Positions 3,068-55,512 of a stretch of DNA of 64,000 nt are shown one piece after another. The notes beneath the pieces are model-generated. The model ran no database searches, was not told where the DNA came from, and was given only the letters and a program-made list of their open reading frames with translations. Both the position numbers and the translations under genes were made by a program. Within the stretch, counting starts at the first letter, position 1; every line of letters begins with the position of its first letter. The stretch is from a virus (Duplodnaviria; Caudoviricetes). The DNA lies in the IMG/VR virus record IMGVR_UViG_3300021400_000447, positions 1 to 64,000 of that record; one strand, given 5' to 3'.

Positions 3068-6000
3068 ATGGCATTGACACCAGGTGTACAAAATCCACAA
3101 GATCCTAATTGGAGTAAATGGGAAAATGGGACATTGATCACAGCGGATAAATTAAATGATATGATTGATTATATGGTAACCACAAAAAATGCTGTTGATA
3201 ATTATAATACATCTACAGAAAATGTAGTTACTACTGATATTCTTGATGCAACAGTTCATGGCCTTGGCTATACAAAAATAGAAGACGTAATTAGTAGTAA
3301 CGAATTAAAAGATGATATTACTAGTAAAATCAATAGCGCCGTTAGTGGGAAGCTACAAGATGCATTTACGAGTCTTGCTAATACAGCACAAACAACTGCT
3401 AACGCCGTTGACACAATTCATACCGTGTAGACGAACGTTAATGCTATATAGACAGAAATTACTGATGCACATCGCGAGGATAAAAATAATGATACACTTG
3501 CAGACCGTTTTTCTGATATAGAGGACACAACGGCCACATTATAGACAACTACTACTGGGTTAAATAATAGAATTACAGATGTAGAAACTAGTATTGATGA
3601 TATCGAGACAGAAATTAACACTGCTCGCGGTGGAGAGCCAAATTTAAATAATCGGTTATAGAGTATGGCTACTAATATTAGTAATAACAGTACTGCAATT
3701 AATACTATAAGTAGCAAAATTGGTGATGGATTTTCTGGCACTAATATTACAGATAAAATAACCGCTATTGAAACAAAATTAACATCAAAGGCTGATGCGT
3801 CGGCACTCGACAACAAAGCTGATAAAAGTTATGTTGATACCGAGCTTGGTAAAAAAGCGAATACAACTTATGTTAACAATCAGCTTTCTGAAAAAGCTAA
3901 TACTAATGATGTTAACGCTCAGCTTGCTAATAAAGCAAATAAAGACGATGTTAATAACACAATAGTTAAAGCTAAAGGTGAAGTTACCTATGTAAATGGT
4001 GTACCAAGCACTACTCAACAAAATTGGACTCCCAATGAAAAAGATGATTATCTATTGCAGGCTGCAGATGATAAGTATTATTATTGGAAGTATATTAAAA
4101 CCAGTTCTAATCCCGACACTTTTAGTTGGGAAAAGATTAGTGGCGGCGGAAATGGCGAAGGCAGCGGTACCGGGAATACCACTGGCGTTGATTTAACAAG
4201 AGGCGAATATGAAGAATTAACTTCTTATGCAGTTAATACAGATTATTATGTTCTTGAAAATGACAGCATACGCCATCATTATAGGTATATTGAAGTAGAA
4301 GACGAATCTACACATGAGAAAAGATTGGTAGAAATTGAAATAGGTATTACTAATCCTAAAAAATATAATCTTGCACTAGAGTCTGTTAAGGACAACGGCG
4401 ATACTATTAATTTTCTAAATGTATATGAATTTGATTATAATGAAAGTAATAGAATTGATAGCACCACGGATTTAGATACTATAGTGAGTAAGCGGATTAA
4501 CCATATACTTTTACCAGCAACTGGGAGCGGCGGTGGCGGTAGCGCAAACACTTTAAAAGTTTCACCAATTACACCACGTTCTTTCACAACAGCTTTAAAT
4601 AGCGGTGAAAAAACTTACTTATAGTTCTTTTTCACAACTGGCGAAGCGAATGAAACGGCGCATTATTCTTTATATTTTGATAATCGTTTGGTAATAGATA
4701 GCAGTGAATTAACGGCTTTAGTTAGCGGCGATCCAGCTAATAAATCCTCTACTTGGCCAACTGATCAACAAGGAAATCCATTACCGCAAGATCAAGTACC
4801 AACTGGTTTTTACTCTATTGATATTACTAAATATTGTAACGCAATAGGTAATAATAAAGAGCTTACTCTATCAATTGCACTAGATACAAATACTTCTATT
4901 ACCGCGACAGCAACTTGGTATGTATCTATTATTCAATTTTAGTTAACTTGTTAGGCGCCAGAAAATATTATTGTTCCAACCACAGAAGGCGTTGAAATTG
5001 CTTATACACCTTATGGTAATATTGCAAAAACTTTACACATATTAGCAGACAATGAAGAAATTGATACTGTAACTTTAAGTAATACTAATAGTGCACGATA
5101 GATTAGCTATACTATTAGCGCGAATACTCTTTCTCACGGTGCGCATAAAATAGATATGTATATGACTGCGTTGATCAATGGTAAATAGCTGCCATCGAAT
5201 CATGTCTATAGGGAATATATTTGGTATGATACAAAAAATACCGCAGAACCAATTATTATTGCTTGCCCTTATTCTGATCAAGAAATAGAAATTGATTCTT
5301 ATACTGAAATTGGTATTCCATATTCTGTTTATAATAAATCTACAGAGGATTATGTAGTATATTATTATTTAAATTATGGAAAAGAAAATGAAGAAAAATT
5401 AATTGATTCAATTACACGAAATGGTAATTATTCTAGTATATTCTATTATACACCAGAAACATCTAAACAAACCGAACAGTAGACATTAACTATTAAAGTC
5501 GGAGACGTAATGGCTAATATTGCTTTAAAAGTATCAGCAATTGAGGCAGATGTTTCCGCAGTAGATGGATCTATTATTGACTTTAATCCTGCTTTATTGA
5601 CTAATAACTCTCAAAATAGATTACCTACCTGGACAAAAAACAATAAAACATATAGCCTAACTGTATCTGATAATTTTAATTGGTCTGACGATGCTAACGG
5701 CGGCGGTTATAAAGATATTGATGGTAAATGTTTTGTTGTAAAGGCTGGCACAAAGGCATATTTAGACTATAAAATGTTTACTCGCGCGACAGGTGGCCGT
5801 AGTGCTGTATTTGATACTGGCGCTGAGATGAAAATAATCTTTAAGGTCGCTGCAGTCCGTGATGCAAGCGCAATATGGTTTAAAAATACTGGTAAGCCTA
5901 CAATTAATAGCGATAAGGAAGTTGGTATAGAACTTGGTGCGCATGCTGGCTGGCTAAAAACTGATAAAGCAAGTGTTACTAGTACTGCTGCAGAAGAGAG

Positions 6001-9000
6001 CGAATATGAAGTATGGATTAAAGGTCAAGTTTATTCTTTAAATACAGTCGTTATTCAACGTGGTAAAACGTCAGAAGATGCTGATGTTGTTTACAAGTGT
6101 ATTAAAAGTTATAATAATACAGATACGACTGAAATTGATGATGAGGAAGTATTAGTGAAAAATGCTTAGCCTAAAAAAGCAACCGAATATTGGTTAAAGA
6201 TGGGCGAATTAGAAAAGCAAACCGACGCAACTAATACATATTTGTATTTCCCATATTCAGAGAATGACAAAATTGAATTAGATATTAATATTAATAAACA
6301 TGATTCAACTGGAAGCTCTGATTTCATCATGTCTTATGAAGATGGCGTGCCGAGTAAGGCATATCCATATATCTATACTGATGGCGGCGATGCTTTATAT
6401 CATATAGAAAATAATGAATCTACAATTGTTATAGGCTCTCCTGACTGTGATGTTTATATTTATCGTCTTCGTATTTATAATAAAAGCCTTACAACTAATG
6501 AAATTTTAAAGAATTTTATTGCAGATGGTAAAACAATCCAAGAAAAGATTGCACGCTATAATCGTAATTGTATTTATTGGGACGAAGAGCAAGGCAAGTA
6601 TCAGTCTGCTGCTGTTGGCTATGCAAAACTTGATCCTATTAAATTAGCAGAAAGGATTCCAGGTGTAAAAATTTTAATGCTTGATACGCCAAGATTTACA
6701 ACAGGTAAAAAAGACTTTGTAAAAGGCGCGACATTAAGATGCATTGAAGCCACTCTTGATAATAATGGAGATATAGTATATGAAGACTTAAATAACTGGT
6801 TTTTCCAAAATGGATTCCATGCTGGGCAAGGAACCACGTCAGATAACTATGGTTAGTCTGGGCGTAATGTTGATTTCTTATTTATGTGTGATGGTGAACA
6901 TGCACCTACAAAGGTAAAAAACATTAAAGGTGGTAAATAGACTTATGCTGGCTATGTATCCAGTGTGTTAAGAGGAAATAATACGTCAAAATGGGACGCA
7001 GAAAATGAAGTTTGGGTACCGGCAGAGGGCGCAGAACCTGAAGTATGTACAGATTGGAAGGGTGATAGTTGCAAAATTAAACTTACTGAACACTCTGTTC
7101 CGAATAATTATTTTAACTTAAAAGTTAATATTGCTTCTTCAGAAAATGTTAATAATGCTCTATTCCAAAAACGATATAATGATTTTCTTCCATATGAAAC
7201 AATAGCCGCCGCGAATCATAATTATGAAGAAGGCACTAAAATTAAAAATAGTATGGAATTCGTGCCAGCTATTTTATTTATTCGTGAAAACGACCCCACG
7301 GGCGTTACAACAACTGTTGAAGATGGCGTTGAAGTCAATCATTATCCAACACATACTGAATTTGATGATACAAAGTGGCACTTCTATGCACTTGGAAATC
7401 TTGGTGACTCTAAAAAGACAGACTACACCCGCGCATACGATCCAAACGATCCATATGAGTTTACTGTTGAAAATTCTGATAACAGCACTGCGAATGGTCA
7501 ATTCCAATCTGGTGTATATATGAATAATGGCGTTGAAACAGTTGAAACGAATGTTAGTACAATAAATCCAATTAATTTTATTTATCCTATCTCATCTGAA
7601 CAGTGGAATGCAATGCGCCAACCAACTGAATAGGAAGCAGAGATTCATGCCAATCCTGGTGAAGATGATACAGATGTGGTAATGAGCAATGGAATGGTTT
7701 ATACTAACTACCGTCACCGCGCGCTTTCTTGTGAAGGATTTGACGGCGACCACTCATTTGAATTCCGTTATGCCAGCTGTGGCGATTATCGTGATGGCGA
7801 TTTAATTAATGACACTACTGGTAATGCAAATTAGTAGAATAAAATTAATCGTGCAGTATTTGAAGCATTTTATGAATGGGTGGTTACTTCTACTCCAGAA
7901 CAATTTAGAGATGAATTTGTTGAATGGGCTGTACCAAGTGCAATGGAATTCTTCTATGCCTATACTCATTATTACACTATGATGGATAACCGCGCGAAAA
8001 ATACTTTCTGGCACTTTGCCAAAACCGGAGAATATCATAGAGTTAGTCGTCCAGTACCTCAATTACTTCATATCTATCACGAATTAATTGATGGATAGTA
8101 TACTCCTACTGAGGACACCACTGTTTTAGCACCAACATATTATATAAAAGATTATATTTTAACAACAGATAAGCAATTTGTTTAGGATACAGTCTATTAT
8201 ATAAAAGATTCAAATTATACTCAATATGATGTTTATATACCAGCAACAGTAACTACAAATTAGTTAATTCCAGAAAATACATATTATATTTTTAATAAGT
8301 ATAAATTAACTACGGATGAAGAAGTTAAGGCTGGTATAGATTATTATACATATTCAAATGGTAACTATTATTTAGCCGAAACAAATATTGGAGATCCAAT
8401 TAAATATTATTATACTCAATATGCATTTGATATGTGGGCATATGATATGGACACTGCCGCTGGTATTGACAATAATGGTGTTTTTGCATTTTCTTATGGT
8501 AAGGAAGATACTGATTATCGTAATGAAAATGATTCTAGTTCTGGTTACGCTTTTAATGGGGCGGGATCAATTTTCTGGCGCCGTCTAAGTACTACATTTG
8601 CAGGTCAAATTCGCGACATTATGACTGGCGCGCACGAGAATTGCTTTAATGCTACTCATTTAATAAATGAATTTGACGCGATGCAAAACCAGTATCCAGA
8701 AGAAATATGGCGTTTAGATATTGAGCGTAAATATATTAGAACATTTACTGGCGAATCAATAGATAATTCTATTACAGCCGGTAAATAGAATTCTCGTTTC
8801 TTACGTTCAATGATGCAGGGACGGAAAAAATATCAACGCCGCCAATGGATTAAAGATCAAAGTATTTATTTTGGTAGCAAATATAGACTTTCTAATGTTA
8901 TTGGCAGCGATAACACAATTGAATTTAACTGCACATTACCTAGCGGGAATTAGGAATCATTAGCGCTACCGATTGACTTGAATTTAGAGCTTACTCCATT

Positions 9001-12000
9001 CCAAGACATGTATATAAATGTTGAAGTTGGTAATGGAAATCTTCGTACAAATATGTATGTAAAAGATCCAAATGGTAATTATATTAAAAATGCTAATTAG
9101 CAATTTGAATTAGTCGCTGTAGGCGAATCTGGCTAGTATTCAAAATGTTCAAGTTTACGTGCGAAAGCTGGACAAGAATATTATATTGATTGCTATAGTG
9201 GCAACTTACAAGAAACTCGTATATTTATTCGTGGAGCGAATAGTATGCAAAGAATTGGTAATCTTGCTGCAATGTATATTTATTCTACTGACTTCCGTGC
9301 GCTTGAGCACCTAAAGGCATTAGAGATTGGCACAGATGTAACTGGTTATTCTAATACTAAATTAACTGAACTTAATATTAGCAATAAAATTCCATTACTT
9401 GAAACATTAAATATTAAGAATTGTCGTTCATTAGCTGGCTAGCTCAATTTAAGTGGTGGTAATAATATTAAAATTATTGAAGCAGAAGGCAGCCGCATAG
9501 CAGGTATTACTTTACCGCAATATACCGCAATTGAAACGTTGCACTTGCCATCAACAATTGAAACACTCTCTTTATATGGTGCGAAAAAATTAAATGATTT
9601 TTATATTAAAAATGTTCTTACTAATGAGATTGATTATACTAGACTTGCAAGTTTAACATTATATGATAGCGACTATTCTGATGCAGTTGATTGGATGAAT
9701 ATTGCAGAAAGTATGCTTGATGGAGTAGATAAATTATTATTATATAATTTGCATTCTGCAACTATTACCAATATTAATGAATTACAATAGTTCTATGATA
9801 AGAAATAGGCATTAGAGACTAGCGAAGAAGAGCGCATTGTGTTTTCTGGAACCATAAATGTTACTGGTGATTGGAGCCAGATAGAGAAAGATAAGTATGA
9901 AAGTGTTTGGGATTTAACATTAAATACGACTGGAACTAAAGTTACTAAATATTTAGTAACATATCAATACCCAGCTGTAGTAGAAAATAATGTAGAAATT
10001 TCTCCAGCAAGAATTATTGCTTAGGTGTATGTTACTAAAGATACTATAGCTCCAGATATTTACGCAAATGGCATGCTTGAAGATATGCCAGAAAAAGCTA
10101 CTACTCCGCAGTACATTTATACATTTGGTTTACGTGATGATCGTGAAGGCAATTATGTAGAGTATAGCGGTTGGAAAAAGGCTAATACCGACTTACCATC
10201 ATTAAGCGGCTATGTGATTCAAGATGATAATGTTATTTTAGAGCCTTATTTTTCCACAACTGAACGTGAATATACTATTCGGTGGTTATTAAATAATGGT
10301 CAAGTTGTTAGCACAAGCAAAACAACTGTAAAATATAATGGTAGCTATGATAAACTTGCTCCAACTATTACTGATATACATAAGAAATATGAAACTTGTA
10401 GTGTTACTATTAGTAATGCTGGAGAAGTAACTTATAATATCTTTGACGGTTGGGATAAAATTCCAAATAAAATTTAGCCGGATGGAACATCTAGTTATTA
10501 TGATATTATGGCAAAATGGGCTACAGGTTCTACTACTATCGTGGATTTATTTGCTAATGTAGATAATTTAACACCATTGCAGTTATTAGTGCTTGCGAAT
10601 CTAACTGAAGCTCAAAAAAATAATTTTGGTCTCGGTACTAAGATTACACCAGCTACAACTATGGCTTATCAATTAGGCAACGATTACACAACTAATGCTG
10701 GTATTGTTATTCAATCTGATTCTGACACTCCAGCTTATAATAAAATTAAAACTACAAATATTTAGCCATTATTAGCTACGCAAGATGCGTTTACTATTGT
10801 ATTAGATTTTTGTCTTAATACAATTGACTATAGTAACAACGCAATTATTATGAGCTGTTATCATAGCAAGGATAATGTAAAGAATGGTATGGGTATTATT
10901 TATAATAAAGCTTCTGGTGTTATAGAAGTAGGATTCGGTGATTATATTAATAATGCCAATTAGCGTGTTGCAGTTAGTAGCGTATTAAATGCTACTATGC
11001 GGAATATTATCGTTTTACGGCATCCGAAGAATAGTCCGACATTGTACATTTATTCTAGCTTAAATGGAGCAGATTCTTTATCAGAGAATGTATATGAAAC
11101 TTCTATTACTCGTACTAGTAATATCAATTTTAATTCTGATGCATATTTAAACTTTGAATAGATAATTGATACATCACGTGAGACAATTGATACTAACGAT
11201 GGTATATTGAGTAATGTTAGCGCGGCCAATACTACTATTTATTGGGCTAAATATTGGAATGAAGATTTAGGATATAGTAAGAGTGTAGAACTTGCAATAT
11301 GGCCACATGAATGGATGACGTTCGCGATTGGTTATAATTATCATAATAATGATGCAGGTATCCCTGCTAAGCGCAATACAGACACATAGTATTCACCGTT
11401 CTTATATCTTGTAAGTTTAAATACATTAATGCATGGTCGTTTTGTTTCTGCTAGAATAACCTAGAACAGTTTTAAGAATAATACTTATAGTTGGCAAGAT
11501 AGTACATTACGAGCGATATATAATAAACGTTTGTATGGAAGTCTACCAATTCAATTATAGGCAGTCTTATGTAAGGCCGCGGTAGATTCACAACAGGCTG
11601 TATATTCGCCAAGTAATGATTTTGGTGGATCAACTTATAGTATAAATTCTAACAGTACAATTATTACACGTGATTATGCTTATGCTTATAGTATGACTAA
11701 TTTAAAAGATATTACTGACTATGAAAATGAAGACTCTCGAATGAATCCTTTTAGATTCCTTCTTGCCGAAAATATTACAGTATATAATAAGGCGACTAAT
11801 GGTAGTTGGAGTGAGGTTGAAAATAATAACGTTGATTCGTATTACAATCTTCGCTTCCCAACTAAACCTCTAAATTTGGCATCATTACATGTGTACATCA
11901 ATTCTACTGATACAACAAATACTACTTCCATTGCTGAATCTATTGGTACTTCTAGTTTACGTAGCGGTGATATATACATTGATAAAACTGTTGCAAATGC

Positions 12001-12310
12001 ATATGAGACTTACATCTATGTGTCAAATGCAGAAATTAATCAATATGGTCTTATTACTGCTCCTTACAGCAATGCTAACGTTAAGTATCGCGGTTTAAGT
12101 GACGACTCAGTAATTAATATTAATAGCACTAGTAAAGGTTTAGGCGGTTGGATTAAAGCTAACGATTATTGGACACGTTCTATCACAACTGGCAGCAGTA
12201 CAGGTAACGGAGTTAATTTCATCTATGTAGATGCTGTAGATGGCGCACCAACTAATGCAACTAATACTTTCTAGGATGGCAGAAAATTCAGCTATATCTT
12301 AGCAATTTAA
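3068..12310 (+). CDS. Giant ~3080-aa virion/tail-associated protein: coiled-coil N-terminus, CotH-kinase-like region, LRRs, LamG-like and DUF6273-like C-terminus
   Basis: 15 track ORFs share one frame; every gap I translated is open apart from about 35 TAGs; GGAGGG RBS; TAA at 12308-12310; motifs [49 protein letters not shown]. Confidence 0.85.
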
Positions 12311-13490: not shown

Positions 13491-13555
13491 TAATCGCATA
13501 AAATAAAATAATTTTTATGACACAATACTACTTTTGTTCAGGAGGGGCGTATAAA

Positions 13556-14575
13556 ATGAAGCAATTAACAATTCATCGGTTGTACTTTACCAACACCGAT
13601 TGTTATAAATCTAAATCTATACAGACTCCCGCTGGCGTACAAGTACACAGTACTGGTTCAAATAATGCTTATTTAAAACGTTATGTTGGGCCAGATGATG
13701 GTTATTTAGGAAAGAATTTATATAATAATACGCATAATCGTGCTGGATTAAATGTTTGCGCGAATGCGTATATTGGTAAATTAAATGATGGCACAGTTAC
13801 AATATATTAGACGTTGCCGTGGGATTACCGTTGTTGGTTAAGCGGTAGCGGGAAAAATGGTAATGCCAATAAAAAAGGATATATTGGGTTTGAAATATGT
13901 GAAGATGGTTTAAAAGATCAAGCATATTTTGAAAGTGCTGTAATGCAAACATCTGTGTATTTGGTAGCCTACTTATGTAATAAATATAATATATCTATAG
14001 ATTCAGTGAGAGATCATCATGAATTAAATGCACTAGGATTAGCAAGTAATCATGCTGATATTACTCATTGGCTTAAAAAATTTGGCCTAACTATGAATGA
14101 TTATCGTAAGGCAGTTATGGAAGCAATGGACGAAGGCGTTGAAGTAACTTATGTCATGGGAGATGCCTTTATAGCAACAGAAATTGCCCAAAAAAATGGA
14201 GTTGAAGAACAAGTGGCTAATATGCTTTATGCGGCTACAATATATTCCGCAAACGGGCACAATAAAAATTTACGCGCCTAGCCAAGTTTGCAGGCACAAA
14301 TATTAACCACAATTCCACCAAATTCCTCCATTGACGTGCTGGAAGAAGTTGATGAGGAATGGGCCAGAATTAAATATAAAGATTATGTTGGTTATATGTG
14401 CAGAGAATTTATTGCAATAGATAAAACAGCAGAAAAAGATAATAACAAAAAAGAGCCAACTACTACTGAGCCAGTGGCAGAAAAGCAATTAATTGAATTG
14501 TCTAAAGAAGAATTATTAGATTTGTACAATTAGTTGTATGATATGCTATAGTTGGTGTAGAAATGGCTTAAATAA
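13556..14575 (+). CDS. Endolysin: N-acetylmuramoyl-L-alanine amidase with SH3-like domain, 5 TAG
   Basis: VHST, Y-Q(TAG)-TLPW, GFEICE, HHE..SNHAD amidase_2 motifs; LRA-Q-PS...I..IP....V.EE....W..I.Y....GY SH3b pattern; ends TAA. Confidence 0.85.
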
Positions 14576-22825: not shown

Positions 22826-25800
22826 ATGGGTTATGTAAATAAAGTAGTAGATAATGTAGGAACTCATTTAGTAGAGCCAACATTATACACTGCTGCAGGC
22901 GGCACTGCTGCCGCGTACACTGCAGCGATCAGTACTTTTGAATTGGTAGAAGGCGTCATGATTAATTTAAAGATTCCGACTACCAATGCAGCATCTGCTA
23001 CATTAAGCATTAATAATACAACAGCGAAAAATATTTATTATAATAATGCAGCTATCGCGGAAAAAGTATTAAAAGCTAATCATATTTATAATTTAACATA
23101 CGACGGTACAAATTGGGTATTAGTTGGGGATTTAGATGCCGAAGTAAACATAACGAATACTTCATTGCCCTCATCTGGAAATAAGATTTATTATTTAACT
23201 TATAGTGTAAGCACTACTACTGGTAATCAAAAATTAAATAACAGCGATAGACTATATTTATATGAAAATACAACAGATTCATATTTAGCTGTTGGCAGTG
23301 GCTCTACCAGTGGTGGCTTAACCATACGTAATAAAAATGGAAAATATATGAATATAGTTACATCTGCATTTAGTGACAATTAGACTTTAACATTACCAGA
23401 TAAAACTGGTATTATTGCATTAACAGGTGATATACCAACTAAAGTAAGCCAATTAACTAATGATTCTGGATATGTAAAATCTTCTGGTGTTACATCCATT
23501 ACATTAAAAGCGGGCGCCGGTATAACATTAGATACAGATAATACAGCAATTACAAATACTGGGGAACGTACCATTAGTATAAGTGGATTAAATACTTCAT
23601 CTGGTTCCACTACAAAATGGCTTAATTAGAAAGGAGGATGGAGCACGCCAACAGCGGCGTAGGTTGGCGCAGCTCCTGCAGTTACTGGCGGTTATTTACC
23701 ATTAAGTGGCGGAGCAATGACGGGCAATATTCGCCGTTATTATGATGCTGCAAGTACTGAACCTATGATTACTATGCTTTCTAATAATTTGGATATCATT
23801 TTATGGGAAGCAGGACATGGCGCTGCCGCCGCGGCAACAACTACATCTAATCATTATAAATTATTATATAAAGGGACAGGCTATACTGGAAATAATGAGA
23901 ATTATTTATAGCTAATTGCACATAAATCTGATGATAACATTGCAGTTCAAATAGATGAGGCAGGTAAAATTATTTTGCCACAGATGGCTACTGGCGCTGT
24001 AGACACACCAATTTATATTAATAGTGATGGTGTGATTACTGCTGGCACTAAATTAGGAGCAAGCGCTTATCATGCTGACTCTTATTTTGCATTAGCGTCT
24101 CATGGTACGCATGTTACTGCTGCAACAGTTAAATCAGCTTTAGGAACGGTTACTACAACCGCAAAAAAATTCTTAAAAGATACTGGCGCATGGGCATAGG
24201 TTAATTGGAGTGATTTGAGTGGTGTGCCAGATACGTTTACGCCTGAAACACATACGCATAATTCTGATAATACTTTAATGCATGGATATACACGTTCATA
24301 GATTGGCACATCGCCAAATTATGATAATCCATAGTATGATGGCAAAAAAATTAATGGTATTTATGAAATACGCAAAGCTTCTGAAGTGAGCGGGCAAACT
24401 GGCACAAGACCGCCAGCCGCCGATTATTATCCAATGTTAAGCTTGCAAACAGAAAACGTAATGATGTAGCTTGGCGGTAGTAACTCATAGGGTTGGTTTA
24501 TTCGTGGAAAATAGGCAGCAAATGTTACACTTGCAAATGTTGATTGGCAACAATTAATAACAGATGCAAATTATAAATCTTATGCATGGGCGCGTCCATC
24601 ATCCATTGCATCTGGTTAGATATTAGTAAGTAATGGAGCTGCAGGAGAAACTACATTACGCGGTATATATACCTTAAGTACGACTGATGACACTGGATGG
24701 AGCACAACGGCAAATAGAACTAAAATTCCAGACATGAGTTTTATGGCATATTGGAATGGCGCGTATAATGGTACTAGCAGTAATTTATCAGTTCTTGGTA
24801 CAATTACTACTGGTACTTGGAACGCTTCTGTAATTGAATCAGCTTACATAGATACAGCGATAGCACGACTTGCATCTCCAGCTTTCACAGGTACTCCGAC
24901 AGCGCCCACCGCGGAAGATGGTACTAATAACACTCAAATTGCTACTACAGCTTTTGTTATGAATGCTTTTAAAACAAATGATGCAATGCTCTATAAAGGA
25001 GTAATAAATGCTGATTCTGATTTACCAACTACACATTATCAAGGATGGACTTACAAGATAGGCACGGCGGGAAAGTATGCTGGTATTTAGTGTGAAGTCG
25101 GTGATATGATTATATGTAATACCGATGGTACAACTGCGAATAATGCTCATTGGAATATCATTCAAACCAATATTGATGGAGCAGTTACAAGCTCTTCCGA
25201 TAGCTCAACAGACAATGCATTGGCTGTATGGAGCGGCACTAGCGGAAGAATTATTAAAAATCAATCATATGTCACATATTTAAATCATAGTCAGATTACA
25301 GGTAAAAACTTTTATTAGGATGGTTTATTAATAAATGGTGTCACCGAAAACGGAACACCTGTATTTGGAGATGCAGGCCCATAGCTACAGTTTAATGATA
25401 GCGGTCAGCAAGGTAGCATTATATTTACTAGATTTGATAACGGATTTGCTAATTCTGCGTCATGGCATTTTGTTGCAAATCAATCATCTGGCACTAATGT
25501 TACATCAACCGGTTTTACTGCGAAAACATATTTAACTATTGGACAAAATGCATTGGATACAGATTATAATTTATCCGTGACAGGAACAACAAAACTTAGT
25601 GGAAATGTTAATGTAATAAGTAATACTCCAAGAATATTATTTAAAGAAATGGATGCAGATAAATCAGTCGCGCCATCAAGTGCTACACAATAGGGTATAT
25701 TTTTTACTGACCAAAATGGTGCAACACTTGGCCTATTGGATTAGCGTATTTATTCTGAGTCAAATCGTATGGAATATTTAGTGCTTGAACCAAATAATAA

Positions 25801-27754
25801 CACTAACGTTTACCATGGCTTGCGTCTTTACGCGCCGTTCCCTGTAAACAATACACGCACATCAGCTTACGCAGAATTTGATGCTGGGTCGTATCTCAAA
25901 TTAAACAACGATACAGACGCAACAGCAGCAGATACTGGCGCATTACGTGTGTTGGGTGGCGCAAGCATATCCAAATCATTGTATGCTAAACTTGGTATAT
26001 TTGACGCAATTTAGAATTATGTCATCGTAGATCGTACATCCACAACAATGACTGCTGGCGAACCATATACAGTCTTTTAGGCAAAATATAAAAACACAAC
26101 TGGCGATGGTACTGCAACAATTAGTGCAATACGTGTTATTGGCACAGATGAAGCCGCAACAAGCTCTGGCGCGTTAAATAATGGATGTGTTTTAATTGGT
26201 AGCGGTACTGGTTGTGTATGGTTCTCCGCTGGTGAGAGTAGTTCTGCGTTCCCGAAAGTAGTTAGTTATAATGATGAGAACGCATATATTAGCGCAGACG
26301 CACATATTGAATTTTATTCTAGCAATAGTACGAATGCGGCCAACTTATCTACCGATAATATAAGACATATCGCGCACTTTGACAAGACAGGCACAACTAC
26401 ATTCTATAATAACATGACACTAGAAGCTGGTAGTATAACAGCAAATGCAGGTAATATTTTTTCTGGGACCGACAGCGCAAATGTGGAACGTGACGTTGGA
26501 GTTAAAACAACAGGCGGCGATTTGTATCTATACTCTACGCCAGCAGGCAATCGCGGTTTATATACTCACGCGCACGGTACTGGTGCGGCGAAAAATATTA
26601 TATCAATAGATACAAATAACAATGCTACTTTTGCTGGTCATAGTTCATTAGATATACCAATTAACTGGACAATTAGCAATGTAACACGCGGCATGGCAAA
26701 TCCCTCTTCCGACCTGTGGTATGGCGGCCGCACATTAATAGATTCGTCTGGTTTAACTGGCGATTTAACAAAACGTCTATATCGCGAAGAAGCATTAATA
26801 GAAACAAATGGAAATAACAGTTATTTTTTCCGCACTTACAACAACGCCGGCACGACAGCCGAACACGTTTATTTACGTCTACTTGCAGGCCCAGCGTCTA
26901 CAGGAATTAATAAACAAATAATAACAAATTCCGACTTCATAAGAGTAAATTCTGATACAGATCGTAATCTTGGTAGAGAGTTCAGAGCTACACGTGGAAC
27001 TCGTTCTATTGAATTTGGATTTGGAACTGCCGGTGTTAATCGTGGTATTTATGATACAACATTAGCATAGTGGGTGTTTTATTCAGATGATTCAAATACT
27101 TATTTAAGAACAGTATTACCTCTCGCAACAGAAACACAAGACTTAGGATCTGCGACTTACAAATGGCAAAATCTTTATACCAAAGGCATCTAGGCAGATA
27201 CAATTACAATTACAGACACAAACGCAGTTAGACACTTGAGGTTCTCACGTACAGGTTGGAACTATATTACTGCACCGAAAGGTGGCAGCCTTGCTTTTAG
27301 TGTAGGAGATTTCGCTGGCACTGGCACATGTCCACTATTAATTACTGGCACAATAAATGACAGCAATCAACTTACAGCTGGCGCACTATTTGCAGGATTG
27401 ACTAGTGTAGTTGATTTGGGTAGAAATACTAATTACTTCAAAACAGCATATATTAACACAGTTTCTGCATATGAATTATTATATTTAAATTCTGGTTCAA
27501 ATACTAAAGCAATAGTATTCTAGCAAGGCGGTACTGAGCGTGCACGAATCAATACCAAAGGCCATCTACAAGTCAATACAAAAGTAGCACAAGATGCATT
27601 TGGTATTTTAGCTAACGATGCTATTGGTACAACTTCTCGCTATAGCTTTACATCTATACCTGTTAATGACGACGCAACAGCGCAAACAGTAAATGAGCAC
27701 GCATATATGCAATACAACACTGCTGATGATAGTATAGACTTTATTTTTAATTAA
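22826..27754 (+). CDS. Long tail-fibre/receptor-binding protein (~1642 aa)
   Basis: Eight track fragments in frame; gaps open except TAG; YLPLSGG.MTG, SPAFTGTPTAPT, DLGS....W..LY motifs; ends TAA. Confidence 0.8.
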
Positions 27755-37347: not shown

Positions 37348-37360
37348 AAATATAGACAGT

Positions 37361-37446
37361 GGGGAGGTACCCAAGTGGCCGAAGGGAGCGACCTACTAAG
37401 TCGCCAGCGCCTCACGGCGGCGTGGGTTCGAATCCCACCCTCCCCG
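37361..37446 (+). tRNA. tRNA-Ser(ACT), unusual A34 anticodon
   Basis: Acceptor GGGGAGG/CCTCCCC, G73, long variable arm, anticodon arm GCGAC-CTACTAA-GTCGC, T loop TTCGAAT. Confidence 0.85.
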
Positions 37447-37468
37447 TTGAAAAGAAAGGAGCCATACT

Positions 37469-39202: not shown

Positions 39203-39279
39203 CGGAACTTAACTCAGTTGGTTAGAGTGGCGGTCTTATAAACCGCAAGTCCTGGGTTCAAGTCCCAGAGTTCCGACCA
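39203..39279 (+). tRNA. tRNA-Ile(TAT), non-lysidine AUA decoder
   Basis: CGGAACT/AGTTCCG; GCGGT-CTTATAA-ACCGC; encoded CCA. Confidence 0.9.
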
Positions 39280-39710: not shown

Positions 39711-39836
39711 ATGCCGGATGATTTCGTAACGAATGATTCATATGACGCATATGATGCTGATTATGAAGAAGAAGAACAGACTTGGGACGAGTATTGCCGA
39801 GAACTGGCGCGGGAAAGCGATGATTTGACAGATTAA
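39711..39836 (+). CDS. 41-aa highly acidic peptide
   Basis: AAGGAG RBS; own promoter; 17 of 41 residues D/E; below track length cutoff. Confidence 0.6.
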   Translation: MPDDFVTNDSYDAYDADYEEEEQTWDEYCRELARESDDLTD

Positions 39837-39853
39837 AAAAATTATGATATAAT
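39825..39853 (+). promoter_or_regulatory. sigmaA promoter upstream of suppressor tRNA locus
   Basis: TTGACA-17-TATAAT, TG extension. Confidence 0.85.
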
Positions 39854-40119
39854 TTATTATGGGCTTGGGATAACTTTGGACACAGCTTATCCTGCCTAAA
39901 ATTAACAGGTGTTACAGAGCCACCTTTAAAGCCCTGGCTTCTGGGCGCAATCCCAAAAATCTACGACCGTTAACACGGATTTAGCACTTCAACTACCACC
40001 GGCACGAAATCCGCCGCGAAAGCGAACGAGTATGCTTGGTTTAACAAGCGGGCGGCTCAGTAGTGATATGTGGCTTAGCGGAAAACGGTATATAAAGAAG
40101 CGAAGTAAAGTGCAATTGT

Positions 40120-40384
40120 AGCCCCTTAGTTCAACGGTAGAACACCGGTCTCTAGTCTTAATTTGGAGCTTCATATGGGGACATATGAATGAAAACGCCG
40201 CTAATTCGGAGAAAGCTTAACTGCCAACCCCGAGCAAGGAGAAATCCGTGTGTAGAGACTTTACACGGCGCATCTAGAACAGATGAAGATAAAGTCCGGA
40301 CCACAATGCAAAAGCAATGCGTGTGAAGAAAACCGTTATATCCCTCTGAAGGAGGTAGTCTGGGTTCGAATCCCAGAGGGGCCA
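40120..40384 (+). tRNA. Amber suppressor tRNA (anticodon CTA), intron-split; exons 40120-40153 and 40329-40384
   Basis: D arm GTTC-AACGGTA-GAAC; spliced anticodon arm CCGGT-CTCT|AAA-ACCGT; T arm CTGGG-TTCGAAT-CCCAG; acceptor GCCCCT/AGGGGC with A.C mismatch at 1-72; 23-nt extra arm. Confidence 0.75.
40154..40328 (+). ncRNA. Compact group I intron (~175 nt) between anticodon positions 35 and 36
   Basis: P1 CTCT/GGAG with U.G at splice site; P2 TTCATATG-GGGA-CATATGAA; P3 CGCCG/CGGCG; P7 GAGACT/AGTCC; P8 CATCT/AGATG; J8/7 AAGATA; terminal G; TTT guide can pair 3' exon AAA (P10). Confidence 0.85.
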
Positions 40385-40389
40385 CAATA

Positions 40390-41101: not shown

Positions 41102-41483
41102 CTTCAACCCAAGTAAAACGGGAATTGACTCGTTATAACCAGCCAATTTTAATTGGCGGCCTGATGAACGTTCGACTCGTTCGTTGCTTAAGTCGGTCTG
41201 AGGGCGGAACTGGCATCCGCCGCCTAAATGGAGATACAGGATTGTCACCCTGTCTACTTAAGCAAGTAGTTTAATGGCTAAAACCGTAGGCGACGTGGCG
41301 CGGACACTGGTTTGGGTGAGGTTTCTGCTATGACCAAAAAGACATAAAATATAGCAGCAATGTGTGCTTATGACGGTATTGTTACGTTGCGGAGCAATAC
41401 TTGAGGCTTCATAGCAGTTAGCGTTAATCTGTGCGCAACAGTTAAAAAACGCATTTTGTGTTTATTTCTCTGGAGGAAAATAA

Positions 41484-48070: not shown

Positions 48071-48096
48071 CTGTAAAAATATTGAAGGGAAAAGAA

Positions 48097-48573
48097 ATGC
48101 CGACTTTATATATCATTTGCGGCCCTAGTGGTAGCGGGAAATCTACTTGGGCAAAGAACTACATGATTGAACATGATGAACAAGATATTCGTTATGTTTC
48201 GCGCGATGAAATTCGTTATTCAATCGTTCATGATGATGAACCTTATTTTTCTCATGAACGTGAAGTTTTTCGCAAGTTTGTATCTACCATTGTAAACACG
48301 CTAATTGACGGATTTGACGTTATTGCTGATGCAACGCATCTTAATAGTGCTTCCCGCGCGAAGCTAACAAATGCAATCGATGCACGCTATTCTGATTATG
48401 ATATTATTTACGTAGTATTTAATGTTCATATTTCTGAGTGTATTCGGCGTAATGGTCTGCGAGAAGGACGAATGTGTGTGCCTGATGGTGTTATCGATCG
48501 GCAATTCCATGATTTTTACGCTCCTACGCTTGAAGAAGATGTACGAGCGACTCGCATAATTTACGTATATTAA
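48097..48573 (+). CDS. P-loop kinase (polynucleotide-kinase/AAA_33-like)
   Basis: GPSGSGKST, SRDEIR, DATHL, ECIRRN..R...VP..VI. Confidence 0.8.
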   Translation: MPTLYIICGPSGSGKSTWAKNYMIEHDEQDIRYVSRDEIRYSIVHDDEPYFSHEREVFRKFVSTIVNTLIDGFDVIADATHLNSASRAKLTNAIDARYSDYDIIYVVFNVHISECIRRNGLREGRMCVPDGVIDRQFHDFYAPTLEEDVRATRIIYVY

Positions 48574-49168: not shown

Positions 49169-49762
49169 GGAGCATTTTCCTTAATAAATGATTGACCCAA
49201 GTGCAGATGTGCCAACCACACTGCTTGGGCTATCTGAATAACAGCCATACGTTACGGCCCGGGATACTAGGCACACGCGGCCGCCGAAACAGCAATGCTA
49301 GGCGATAGGAAGAAACTTCTAATGTTAAGGATAGGCGCTTAAATATTCGCAATCAAAAGTATTATTCCTCTTGGCCACATAATAGAAAGCTCATTGAATA
49401 GGTGAGCCGAATCCAGATAAGGTGGTAGCTGGTAACTGCTGCAAACTCTGGAATTACCATAAGTGGCTAATGTCGATGAAAGCCAGAAATGGCATATAAA
49501 AGAGGTTTAAAGTAAAAGTAGGCCAATACGACATTAATTGTATGTTAACACATAAGCAAGTATGCTTAATATGATTATTGCTGAATGGTTTGGCTGAAAT
49601 TTCAGGGTAAGCAATCCCTGCTATACATGGCTGTAAAGCGGGTTAAGAAAGTTACGGGGTAGCTCCTTGTGGCTCAGCTCTTAATTCTATAGTGACTGAA
49701 TATGATTGAAGAATATTATAAGTATGGCGAAGGCTGCAATCATTTGTTAAGGAAAATGCTCC
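49169..49762 (+). ncRNA. Large ornate non-coding RNA, 594 nt (ROOL/GOLLD-like candidate)
   Basis: 49169-49194 pairs with 49737-49762 (26 bp, one G.U); nested GCCATAC/GTATGGC; many internal hairpins; no credible ORF. Confidence 0.75.
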
Positions 49763-54663: not shown

Positions 54664-55512
54664 ATGCTACATAAGGTGTACTTTTTTACTGATATTCACG
54701 GGCAAGAACAGCTATACGACAATATTGTAAATTGGTGCAAACAAAACGATAAACATTGTACAATTATTTATGGTGGAGATGCGTGTGATCGCGGTGAAAG
54801 TGGATATATGATTATGAAAAAGTTGCTTCAAGACCATAATATTGCATATTTAAAAGGAAATCATGAGGATACTTTTGTTCGCGCCGCGCGAGCATTAAAA
54901 AATTCTGAAGTGTGCCATTATGCGTATAAAGACAGAAAAAGCATTTCAAAAGCACTTTTAGATTATGCAAATCATGTAAGTTTTTATTACGAAGATGGTT
55001 CATCTGTCCGCCTATCTATTACCAATGGCGGCGAATCCACATTGTGTGATTGGATAGCCGATGGAATGCCAATGGATATTGTTGAAGCAATAGATGCACT
55101 ACCCTATACTTATTCATATGGCTCATTAGATTTTTGTCATGCTGGTGGCACATACGAAGGATTTTTTAGAATTAAATATGATCAAGGTGACATGTGGGAT
55201 ATAAATGAAATTCTGTGGGAAAGATCATATTTTGGAGTTTCTTGGCGACCTGGCCGCGTTTGTGTTTATGGCCATACGCCAACAACTTATATTGATCCAA
55301 ACCTACATACACTTGGCCCACTAACAATCGATAAAATTCGACCAGTACGACTATTGTCTGATAGAATTATTATGGATGTCGGATCTGCATTTACAGATAA
55401 ATGCTATGTTCTAGATTGCGACACAATGTTGGCACATGAATTTTTAACTAAAGATCATATCATTCATATCGATGAACATATATTTGATTTAAACAAGGAG
55501 GAAAACAGTTAA
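54664..55512 (+). CDS. Metallophosphoesterase (lambda-type Ser/Thr phosphatase-like)
   Basis: DIHG, GDACDRG, GNHE, HAG, GHTP. Confidence 0.9.
   Translation: MLHKVYFFTDIHGQEQLYDNIVNWCKQNDKHCTIIYGGDACDRGESGYMIMKKLLQDHNIAYLKGNHEDTFVRAARALKNSEVCHYAYKDRKSISKALLDYANHVSFYYEDGSSVRLSITNGGESTLCDWIADGMPMDIVEAIDALPYTYSYGSLDFCHAGGTYEGFFRIKYDQGDMWDINEILWERSYFGVSWRPGRVCVYGHTPTTYIDPNLHTLGPLTIDKIRPVRLLSDRIIMDVGSAFTDKCYVLDCDTMLAHEFLTKDHIIHIDEHIFDLNKEENS

Follow-up and report, generated by a model that had tools for sequence, protein, structure and literature searches.

A predicted amber-suppressor tRNA gene of a TAG-recoded phage is split in its anticodon loop by a compact intron of the group I type

The window, i.e., the whole 64,000-nucleotide stretch of phage DNA analyzed here (positions 1 to 64,000 of the 81,402-base IMG/VR record IMGVR_UViG_3300021400_000447), carries on its plus strand a tRNA(CUA) gene at 40120-40384 that is split in the anticodon loop (CUCU|AAA) by an insert at 40154-40328. 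With introns allowed, ARAGORN called a tRNA(cta) spanning 40120-40385 and placed an intron of 175 nt behind gene position 34/35 (tctct-intron-aaaac); the interruption sits between ...CCGGTCTCT and AAAACCGT..., which places it between U35 and A36 of the CUA anticodon. The 5' exon (40120-40153, plus strand) comprises the 5' strand of the acceptor stem, the D arm, the 5' strand of the anticodon stem and the loop nucleotides C32, U33, C34, and U35, as delimited by ARAGORN -i, and has the same sequence as in the intron-less relatives L001 and L003 described below. The 3' exon (40329-40384, plus strand), delimited by ARAGORN and by comparison with relatives, supplies A36, A37, and A38, the 3' strand of the anticodon stem, a long extra arm, the T arm and the 3' strand of the acceptor stem. 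Removal of the insert gives a cloverleaf with the loop CUCUAAA, matching natural intron-less tRNAs. The discriminator is an A at 40384 and CCA is not encoded (…GGGGCC-A-CAAT, 40384-40388); the discriminator is G in every relative compared, and GCCA is encoded in many of them.

Because the anticodon is split by the intron, the gene is hidden from standard tRNA finders: the 13 tRNAs that ARAGORN detected across the window in default mode do not include one at 40120-40384, where the Rfam tRNA model likewise gave no match to the split tRNA(CUA). ARAGORN -i yields many spurious split-tRNA calls, and we counted only those that enclose a same-strand match to the intron profile described below. An earlier sequence-only reading of the window had taken this tRNA to be its sole suppressor, and had named a second, intron-less CUA tRNA as the case that would count against its interpretation. 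ARAGORN found a single CUA, UUA, or UCA tRNA, the one at 40120-40384, both in the 64-kb window and in the 81,402-base record, and the named case did not turn up there. The record is linear, negative in a terminal repeat search and ∼46% complete by CheckV; "only suppressor" thus holds for 81.4 kb and cannot be proven for the whole genome.

The ends of the insert were set by comparison with natural alleles. When viral contigs were searched with the sequence of the T arm and acceptor, three proved to have an insert-free tRNA(CUA) (L001, L002, and L003). Through position 72, L001 and L003 are 100% identical to the joined exons of the window, and L002 has one mismatch. Since these intron-less alleles have matching exons, the 175 nt are a clean insertion with the exact junction CTCT|AAAA, and the junction expected earlier is borne out at the sequence level. 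An A at both borders of the insert leaves a 1-nt ambiguity, which is resolved by the group I rule (U before the intron and G at its end). The Rfam alignment had G40314 as the last intron base; this was overruled by the comparative junction, which makes G40328 the terminal G. A functional CUA anticodon loop would exist only after exact splicing at CTCT|AAAA, and we infer from sequence that the window intron is spliced, its efficiency in vivo included.

Next, we examined whether the insert (40154-40328, plus strand, 175 nt, ORF-less) has the structure of a group I intron. A check with the group I covariance model had been proposed, and its outcome was divided: the match of Rfam Intron_gpI (RF00028) to 40142-40314 has an E-value of 1.9e-6 for the 651 nt scanned, and of 5.7e-8 when the genome was searched, but its 32.4 bits lie below the gathering cut-off of 50, and the match was seen in E-value mode and absent from a scan of the window at the gathering threshold. 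The Rfam group I seed holds no bacterial sequences (Williams 2020, bioRxiv 10.1101/2020.01.27.920355). A hand-drawn structure was then counted on an alignment of 19 homologous sequences, with two controls, one in which the 3' partners were slid by 1-3 columns and one of 500 shuffles. Standard pairs fill 88.8% of the cells in this alignment vs. 35-38% in the slid controls, both-side changes occur in 33 of the 50 pairs, and none of the 500 shuffles matched the observed values.

All the elements that the sequence-only reading had named (P1 with its U.G, P3, P7, P8, the terminal G and a guide capable of P10) are present. P1 is formed by CUCU (40150-53) and the guide GGAG (40165-68), with U40153.G40165 at the 5' splice site; this U.G is invariant in 19/19 homologues. 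The guide covaries with the anticodon loop of the host tRNA, as CUCU/GGAG in CUA and Lys(CUU) tRNAs, GCUGU/GCAGC in Asn and Thr tRNAs, and ACUU/GAGU in Leu(UAA). P2 has 8 bp, all of which covary (8/8), and a GGGA loop, which is a GNRA tetraloop. Among the 19 sequences, P3 (CGCCG/CGGCG) is 100% paired and covaries at 5/5 pairs; P4 is 97% paired, the window copy having one A.C that is common to L024; P5 (2 bp) is 100% paired, and the loop of P6 is GAAA. The guanosine-binding helix P7 (40255-40297, plus strand) consists of G40255, a bulged A40256 and GACU (40257-60) opposite AGUCC (40293-97), and encloses the P3' strand (40266-70), P8 (40271-85), and J8/7. It is 100% paired in the 19-sequence alignment with 4/5 pairs invariant, the strand GTAGAGAC being invariant and AGTCC nearly so. 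P8 (5 bp) is likewise 100% paired, and three of four pairs covary. In the P9 hairpin (40302-40323, plus strand) 6/7 pairs show compensatory changes at 68% pairing, a figure from an alignment that is poor for the distant members. Finally, a 3-bp P10 is possible between UUU (40162-64) and the exon AAA (40329-31) next to the terminal G40328. No sensor or extra domain is visible, and the 175 nt are almost all catalytic core.

We concluded that, by its predicted fold, the insert at 40154-40328 belongs to the group I introns, and the main proposal of the earlier reading, an amber-suppressor tRNA with a group I intron in its anticodon, is confirmed by ARAGORN -i, the intron-less alleles and covariation. 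GNRA tetraloops on P2 and P9 make peripheral contacts in the Azoarcus intron. The P9 tetraloop (L9) is AAAA in the window and GAAA in six related CUA-tRNA introns. The L9 AAAA, the A discriminator and the unencoded CCA are three differences of the window allele from all the relatives compared, and could lower the efficiency of splicing or charging.

The genome around the split tRNA gene is recoded. Plus-strand ORF coverage rises from 39 to 71% once TAG is read through. An ORF at 3068-12310 (35 in-frame TAGs, 3080 aa) appears only with TAG read through; a second at 22826-27754 has 21 TAGs and the endolysin gene at 13517-14575 has five. The structural and lysis genes are rich in TAG, and 35.6-49 kb, the region of the tRNA array, has almost none. 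The many in-frame TAGs that the earlier reading saw in tail and lysis genes are there, but TAG is not confined to them: it also occurs in one PhoH-like and one ligase-like gene, as well as in the 849-aa gene at 56.0-58.6 kb. As for the amino acid inserted, TAG aligns with CAG and CAA in two internal repeats, and of the TAGs in the PhoH-like protein one coincides with a column that has Q in 106/119 homologues and the other three with N/Q, D/E/Q/N, and H/N columns. The solved PhoH structure 3B85 was tried as a guide to the TAG positions and proved uninformative (an Ala is aligned and a Gln lies one position away). On these alignments, TAG is read as Gln in this phage. Ser, Leu, or Tyr identity, suggested by the long extra arm, was rejected, as TAG aligns with Gln and the loop of the arm shows Gln anticodons.

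This extra arm is a variable-region hairpin at 40337-40357 (plus strand) with a 7-nt loop, CUCUGAA (40344-40350), that copies an anticodon loop with the Gln anticodon CUG in place. In ∼25 related suppressors the extra-arm loop presents CUG or UUG, both of which are Gln anticodons, and the closing 3 bp covary (UCC/GGA, CAC/GUG, UGC/GCA, and CUC/GAG). In the same suppressors the pairing at 1:72 is without exception weak or mismatched (A.C, A-U, U-A, or U.U), and G73 is nearly universal. The arm thus looks like a decoy anticodon arm that would secure Gln charging, and the suppressor is presumably charged with Gln.

A sigma-70/sigmaA-type promoter lies at 39825-39853 (plus strand) with TTGACA, a 17-nt spacer, TATAAT and a TG before the -10 element; 12/12 consensus positions match, as had been claimed for it. 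Of the strong promoters upstream of the suppressor tRNA it lies closest, 267 nt away, and it probably drives that gene. Similar promoters with 11/12 matches precede other tRNAs of the array (37319, 38334, 39648, and 40390). Near-consensus TTGAC(A/C/T)-17-TATAAT sequences stand before individual tRNA genes, and a promoter block of ∼50 nt is repeated in related phage contigs. Between promoter and tRNA runs a 260-nt leader (39860-40119, plus strand) with a conserved 3' part at ∼39966-40117. A structured regulatory leader was considered for 39860-40119 and rejected, the folding z-score of +0.57 indicating no more structure than in shuffled sequence. The pieces 39966-40004 and 40064-40117 are 98-100% identical in L067, and ∼146 nt of the 3' part match L003 at 73%; the copies of the element in L067 and L003 lie 2-6 kb from their suppressor tRNAs and are not adjacent to them. 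The conserved element 39966-40117 gave no Rfam match.

Other features of the neighborhood are recorded here. A full-length ROOL RNA is found downstream of the tRNA array at 49173-49755 (RF03087, 311.8 bits vs. a cut-off of 99.1), and a skipping-rope RNA inside the array at 41193-41260 (RF02924, 38.1 bits, just above the cut-off of 36.7). ARAGORN called a tRNA-Ser with the unusual anticodon ACT at 37360-37447 and a tRNA-Ile(TAT) at 39203-39279. In or near the array are genes for an RNA ligase (PF09414, 37469-38134), a P-loop kinase-like protein (AAA_33, 48082-48573) and a metallophosphatase (54664-55512), which together could form a tRNA-repair set.

To place the intron among its relatives, we collected its family with two conserved core 15-16-mers, which returned ∼190 viral loci, followed by BLAST and intron-aware ARAGORN, the CUA intron being the seed. 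Seven further CUA-tRNA genes carry a 173-177-nt insert that is 81-90% identical to the window intron, and related 180-230-nt inserts are present in viral tRNA Asn, Lys, Leu, Ser, Thr, and Tyr genes and in UUA suppressors. The CUA-tRNA introns, at 173-177 nt, are the shortest of ∼150 family members collected, the others measuring at least 180 nt. An nhmmer profile of the 19-sequence alignment gave 119 matches in 87 viral loci, mostly within tRNA genes, and the viral hosts include CUA (seven), UUA, and UCA suppressors. Predicted UUA (ochre) or UCA (opal) suppressors split by the same intron family lie at 1032-1296 of L123, 6546-6808 of L070, 1134-1418 of L018, and 2062-2346 of L029. For bacteria, a core 15-mer was searched in contigs representing one genome per species and gave 120 loci; introns of bacterial tRNA Leu(UAA), Asn, Tyr, Thr, Phe, Ser, and Arg match the profile with E-values of 1e-12 to 1e-33, and no suppressor host was found among the ∼83 bacterial profile matches. 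The viral hosts of the family are often suppressors, the bacterial hosts never, in a sampling that was seeded from the CUA intron.

Long members of the family (∼590-730 nt) contain ORFs. Eight of the ten ORFs analyzed match the PD-(D/E)XK endonuclease family PF11645, which we take to include I-Ssp6803I; of the remaining two, one has a weak HNH match below the Pfam cut-off and one is without a match. The PF11645 ORFs (E-values down to 1e-32), inserted around profile position 100-105 in members of ∼590-630 nt, include those at 1020-1487 of L117, 2422-2946 of L161, 184-675 of L132, and 1265-1762 of L176. An endonuclease on board is the mark of a mobile element, and these long members suggest selfish spread. 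The window intron contains no ORF, and no homing endonuclease domain was found in the neighboring ORFs. When divergent CUA tRNAs are compared, identity is higher in the intron than in the exons (85% vs. 65% for L033 and the window, 82% vs. 71% for L039), which fits lateral spread. In a quick FastTree tree, read for topology only, the CUA introns group in a single clade, inside which that of L033 is nested, and the other host tRNA types are interleaved.

The distribution of the intron among close relatives was examined with the exact anticodon arm as a query of IMG/VR. Intron-less orthologues, which the earlier reading had proposed to survey for, were found: 28 contigs have the identical anticodon arm without an insert vs. 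six with an insert, or seven with the window. Two gapped-pattern matches (L234 and L235) were left out of this count as non-tRNA coincidences. Phages with and without the intron are related, their tail proteins being 45-53% identical to those of the window, and both kinds occur in one metagenome sample (L024 and L002, respectively; IMG/VR record prefix 3300033463). A complete relative, G002 (181 kb, with terminal repeats and 100% complete by CheckV), is also TAG-recoded, its coverage rising from 46 to 78%; its single suppressor among 30 tRNAs is the intron-less version of the window tRNA. As G002 is recoded with this intron-less suppressor alone, the code change works without the intron. In the same genome, a stretch on the minus strand (612-733, within L199) gave a weak partial match to the intron profile (positions 7-101, 19 bits), which may be an intron remnant.

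Group I introns in the anticodon loops of bacterial and plastid tRNAs are well documented, with subgroup IC3 in Leu(UAA), fMet, Ile(CAU), and Arg(CCU) and 17 further settings, 21 in total (Williams 2020, bioRxiv 10.1101/2020.01.27.920355). The window intron resembles them in its position in the anticodon loop directly after a U, its P1 U.G and terminal G, its compact core and its GNRA loop on P2 (and on P9 in its relatives), and one profile matches the phage and the bacterial tRNA introns; on these grounds, it belongs to the bacterial tRNA-intron family surveyed in that work. It differs in its host, a phage suppressor tRNA(CUA) split between positions 35 and 36. The intron of Synechocystis tRNA-fMet carries the PD-(D/E)XK homing endonuclease I-Ssp6803I (Bonocora and Shub 2001, as cited in PMC3984707); this is likewise an anticodon-loop group I family with PD-(D/E)XK forms, as the PF11645 ORFs in long relatives of the window intron show, whereas the window copy is ORF-less.

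Among phages, the nearest precedent is that of the Lak megaphages, for which "enigmatic" introns were reported in tRNA Tyr and Thr, unclassified and one of them perhaps tRNA-encoding (Devoto et al. 2019, PMC6784885), a report repeated in a 2026 jumbo-phage survey. These introns and ours share a setting in tRNA genes of TAG-recoded phages, a variable presence, and excision points taken from intron-less alleles, but for the window intron the class (group I) is established, and it interrupts the suppressor itself. In code-15 phages, suppressor tRNAs have been described by Borges et al. (preprint 10.1101/2021.08.26.457843), by Yutin et al. (2021, PMC7886860) and for phAss-1 (PMC10607447). As in these phages, the tRNA(CUA) of ours lies where TAG is scarce, and the TAG (Gln) codons cluster in genes for structure and lysis; the 88-nt long-arm Sup-CTA of phAss-1 matches the window 3' exon at 93.9% over 49 nt. 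Unlike here, introns in suppressor tRNAs are not mentioned in the three reports. According to a 2014 review, every phage group I intron then known lay in a protein-coding gene, although phages have many tRNA genes (PMC3984707). The sequence-only reading knew of no described case in a phage suppressor tRNA, and our search of the literature outside subscription-only papers likewise turned up no report of a group I intron in such a gene. What is new is the host gene, a phage stop-codon suppressor; the intron is a tRNA group I intron of the bacterial type.

How the intron came to lie in this gene, and what it does there, can be weighed from these data. We consider it likely that the locus is an amber-suppressor (UAG = Gln) gene with a compact, ORF-less group I intron that is a tolerated mobile or selfish passenger and not a timer of the code change; the endonuclease-bearing relatives, the presence of the family in ordinary tRNAs and its sporadic distribution favor this explanation. 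The sequence-only reading had proposed instead a splicing-gated code switch, in which self-splicing that is slow, or conditional on GTP, Mg2+, or a factor, delays the suppressor and so times the TAG-rich late and lysis genes. Several features would suit such a gate: the anticodon becomes functional only post-splicing, the 81-kb record shows no suppressor besides this one, TAG abounds in the structural and lysis genes but hardly occurs around the tRNA array, all three suppressor kinds host the intron family in viral contigs, and the AAAA loop of L9 could slow folding of the window allele. They are met by the 28 intron-less vs. seven intron-bearing alleles of the same tRNA, by G002, which runs on the intron-less tRNA, by TAGs in presumably non-late genes, and by the occurrence of the family in ordinary tRNAs (Asn, Leu, Lys, Thr, Tyr, Ser, Phe, and Arg), where gating is unneeded; the long members with their endonucleases again point to selfish spread. 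A regulatory gate would be kept wherever its function exists or would have a sensor domain, and we saw neither such retention nor a sensor in the 175 nt. We therefore regard the gate as quite unlikely. No observation requires a timing role; as timing is beyond the reach of sequence, the idea is unsupported, as opposed to refuted. It also seems improbable, to a like degree, that the rate or conditions of splicing (GTP, Mg2+, a chaperone, or the weak L9) could set the onset or strength of the alternative code, with suppressor introns possibly over-represented by selection.

Two further explanations were considered. The gene might be decaying, with poor splicing or charging, and be en route to a pseudogene, suppression being supplied by the missing half of the genome or by the host. 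The linear, incomplete record leaves room for such a source, and the window allele alone combines an A discriminator, no CCA and a non-GNRA L9. However, the invariant core positions and helices P1-P9 are intact save for the A.C in P4, which L024 has as well, the exons are 100% identical to those of intron-less tRNAs up to position 72, complete G002 has no second suppressor, and CCA is unencoded in many tRNA genes; we consider decay very unlikely. The intron could also bring a benefit of another kind, either protection from a homing endonuclease at co-infection or silencing of the suppressor where TAG read-through in the host is costly. In group I homing, a site that already contains the intron normally escapes cleavage by the cognate homing enzyme; family members do encode PD-(D/E)XK endonucleases, and phages with and without the intron (L024 and L002) share a sample. 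Against this, the record showed no endonuclease gene close to the tRNA, and such a benefit appears highly improbable.

For the tolerated passenger, which we prefer, the following sequence of events is proposed. The transcript probably starts at the 39825 promoter, and RNase P would remove the 5' leader. The precursor would fold into the ribozyme, with the exon end CUCU paired to the guide GGAG and the U.G at the cleavage site, and an external guanosine would attack after U40153. G40328 would then dock in P7 and the exon AAA pair with UUU as P10, so that exon ligation gives the loop CUCUAAA. CCA would be added enzymatically, and charging with Gln is probably aided both by weak pairing at 1:72 and by the Gln anticodon that the extra arm displays. 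The window intron itself would be a member, devoid of a homing endonuclease, of a mobile family that has spread within CUA tRNAs.

TAG- or TGA-recoded phages without a detectable suppressor have been reported (PMC7886860, PMC10607447), and suppressors split by introns could be a simple and checkable explanation for them. Phage tRNA finding should allow for group I introns, default ARAGORN and the Rfam tRNA model being blind to the suppressor. The bacterial tRNA-intron family extends to dozens of viral tRNA genes, with all three kinds of suppressor among them, and the 173-177-nt CUA introns with P1-P9 are very small natural group I ribozymes that could serve as minimal models. Whatever its origin, the intron would make the expression of structural and lysis genes in this phage depend on a single RNA-catalyzed step.
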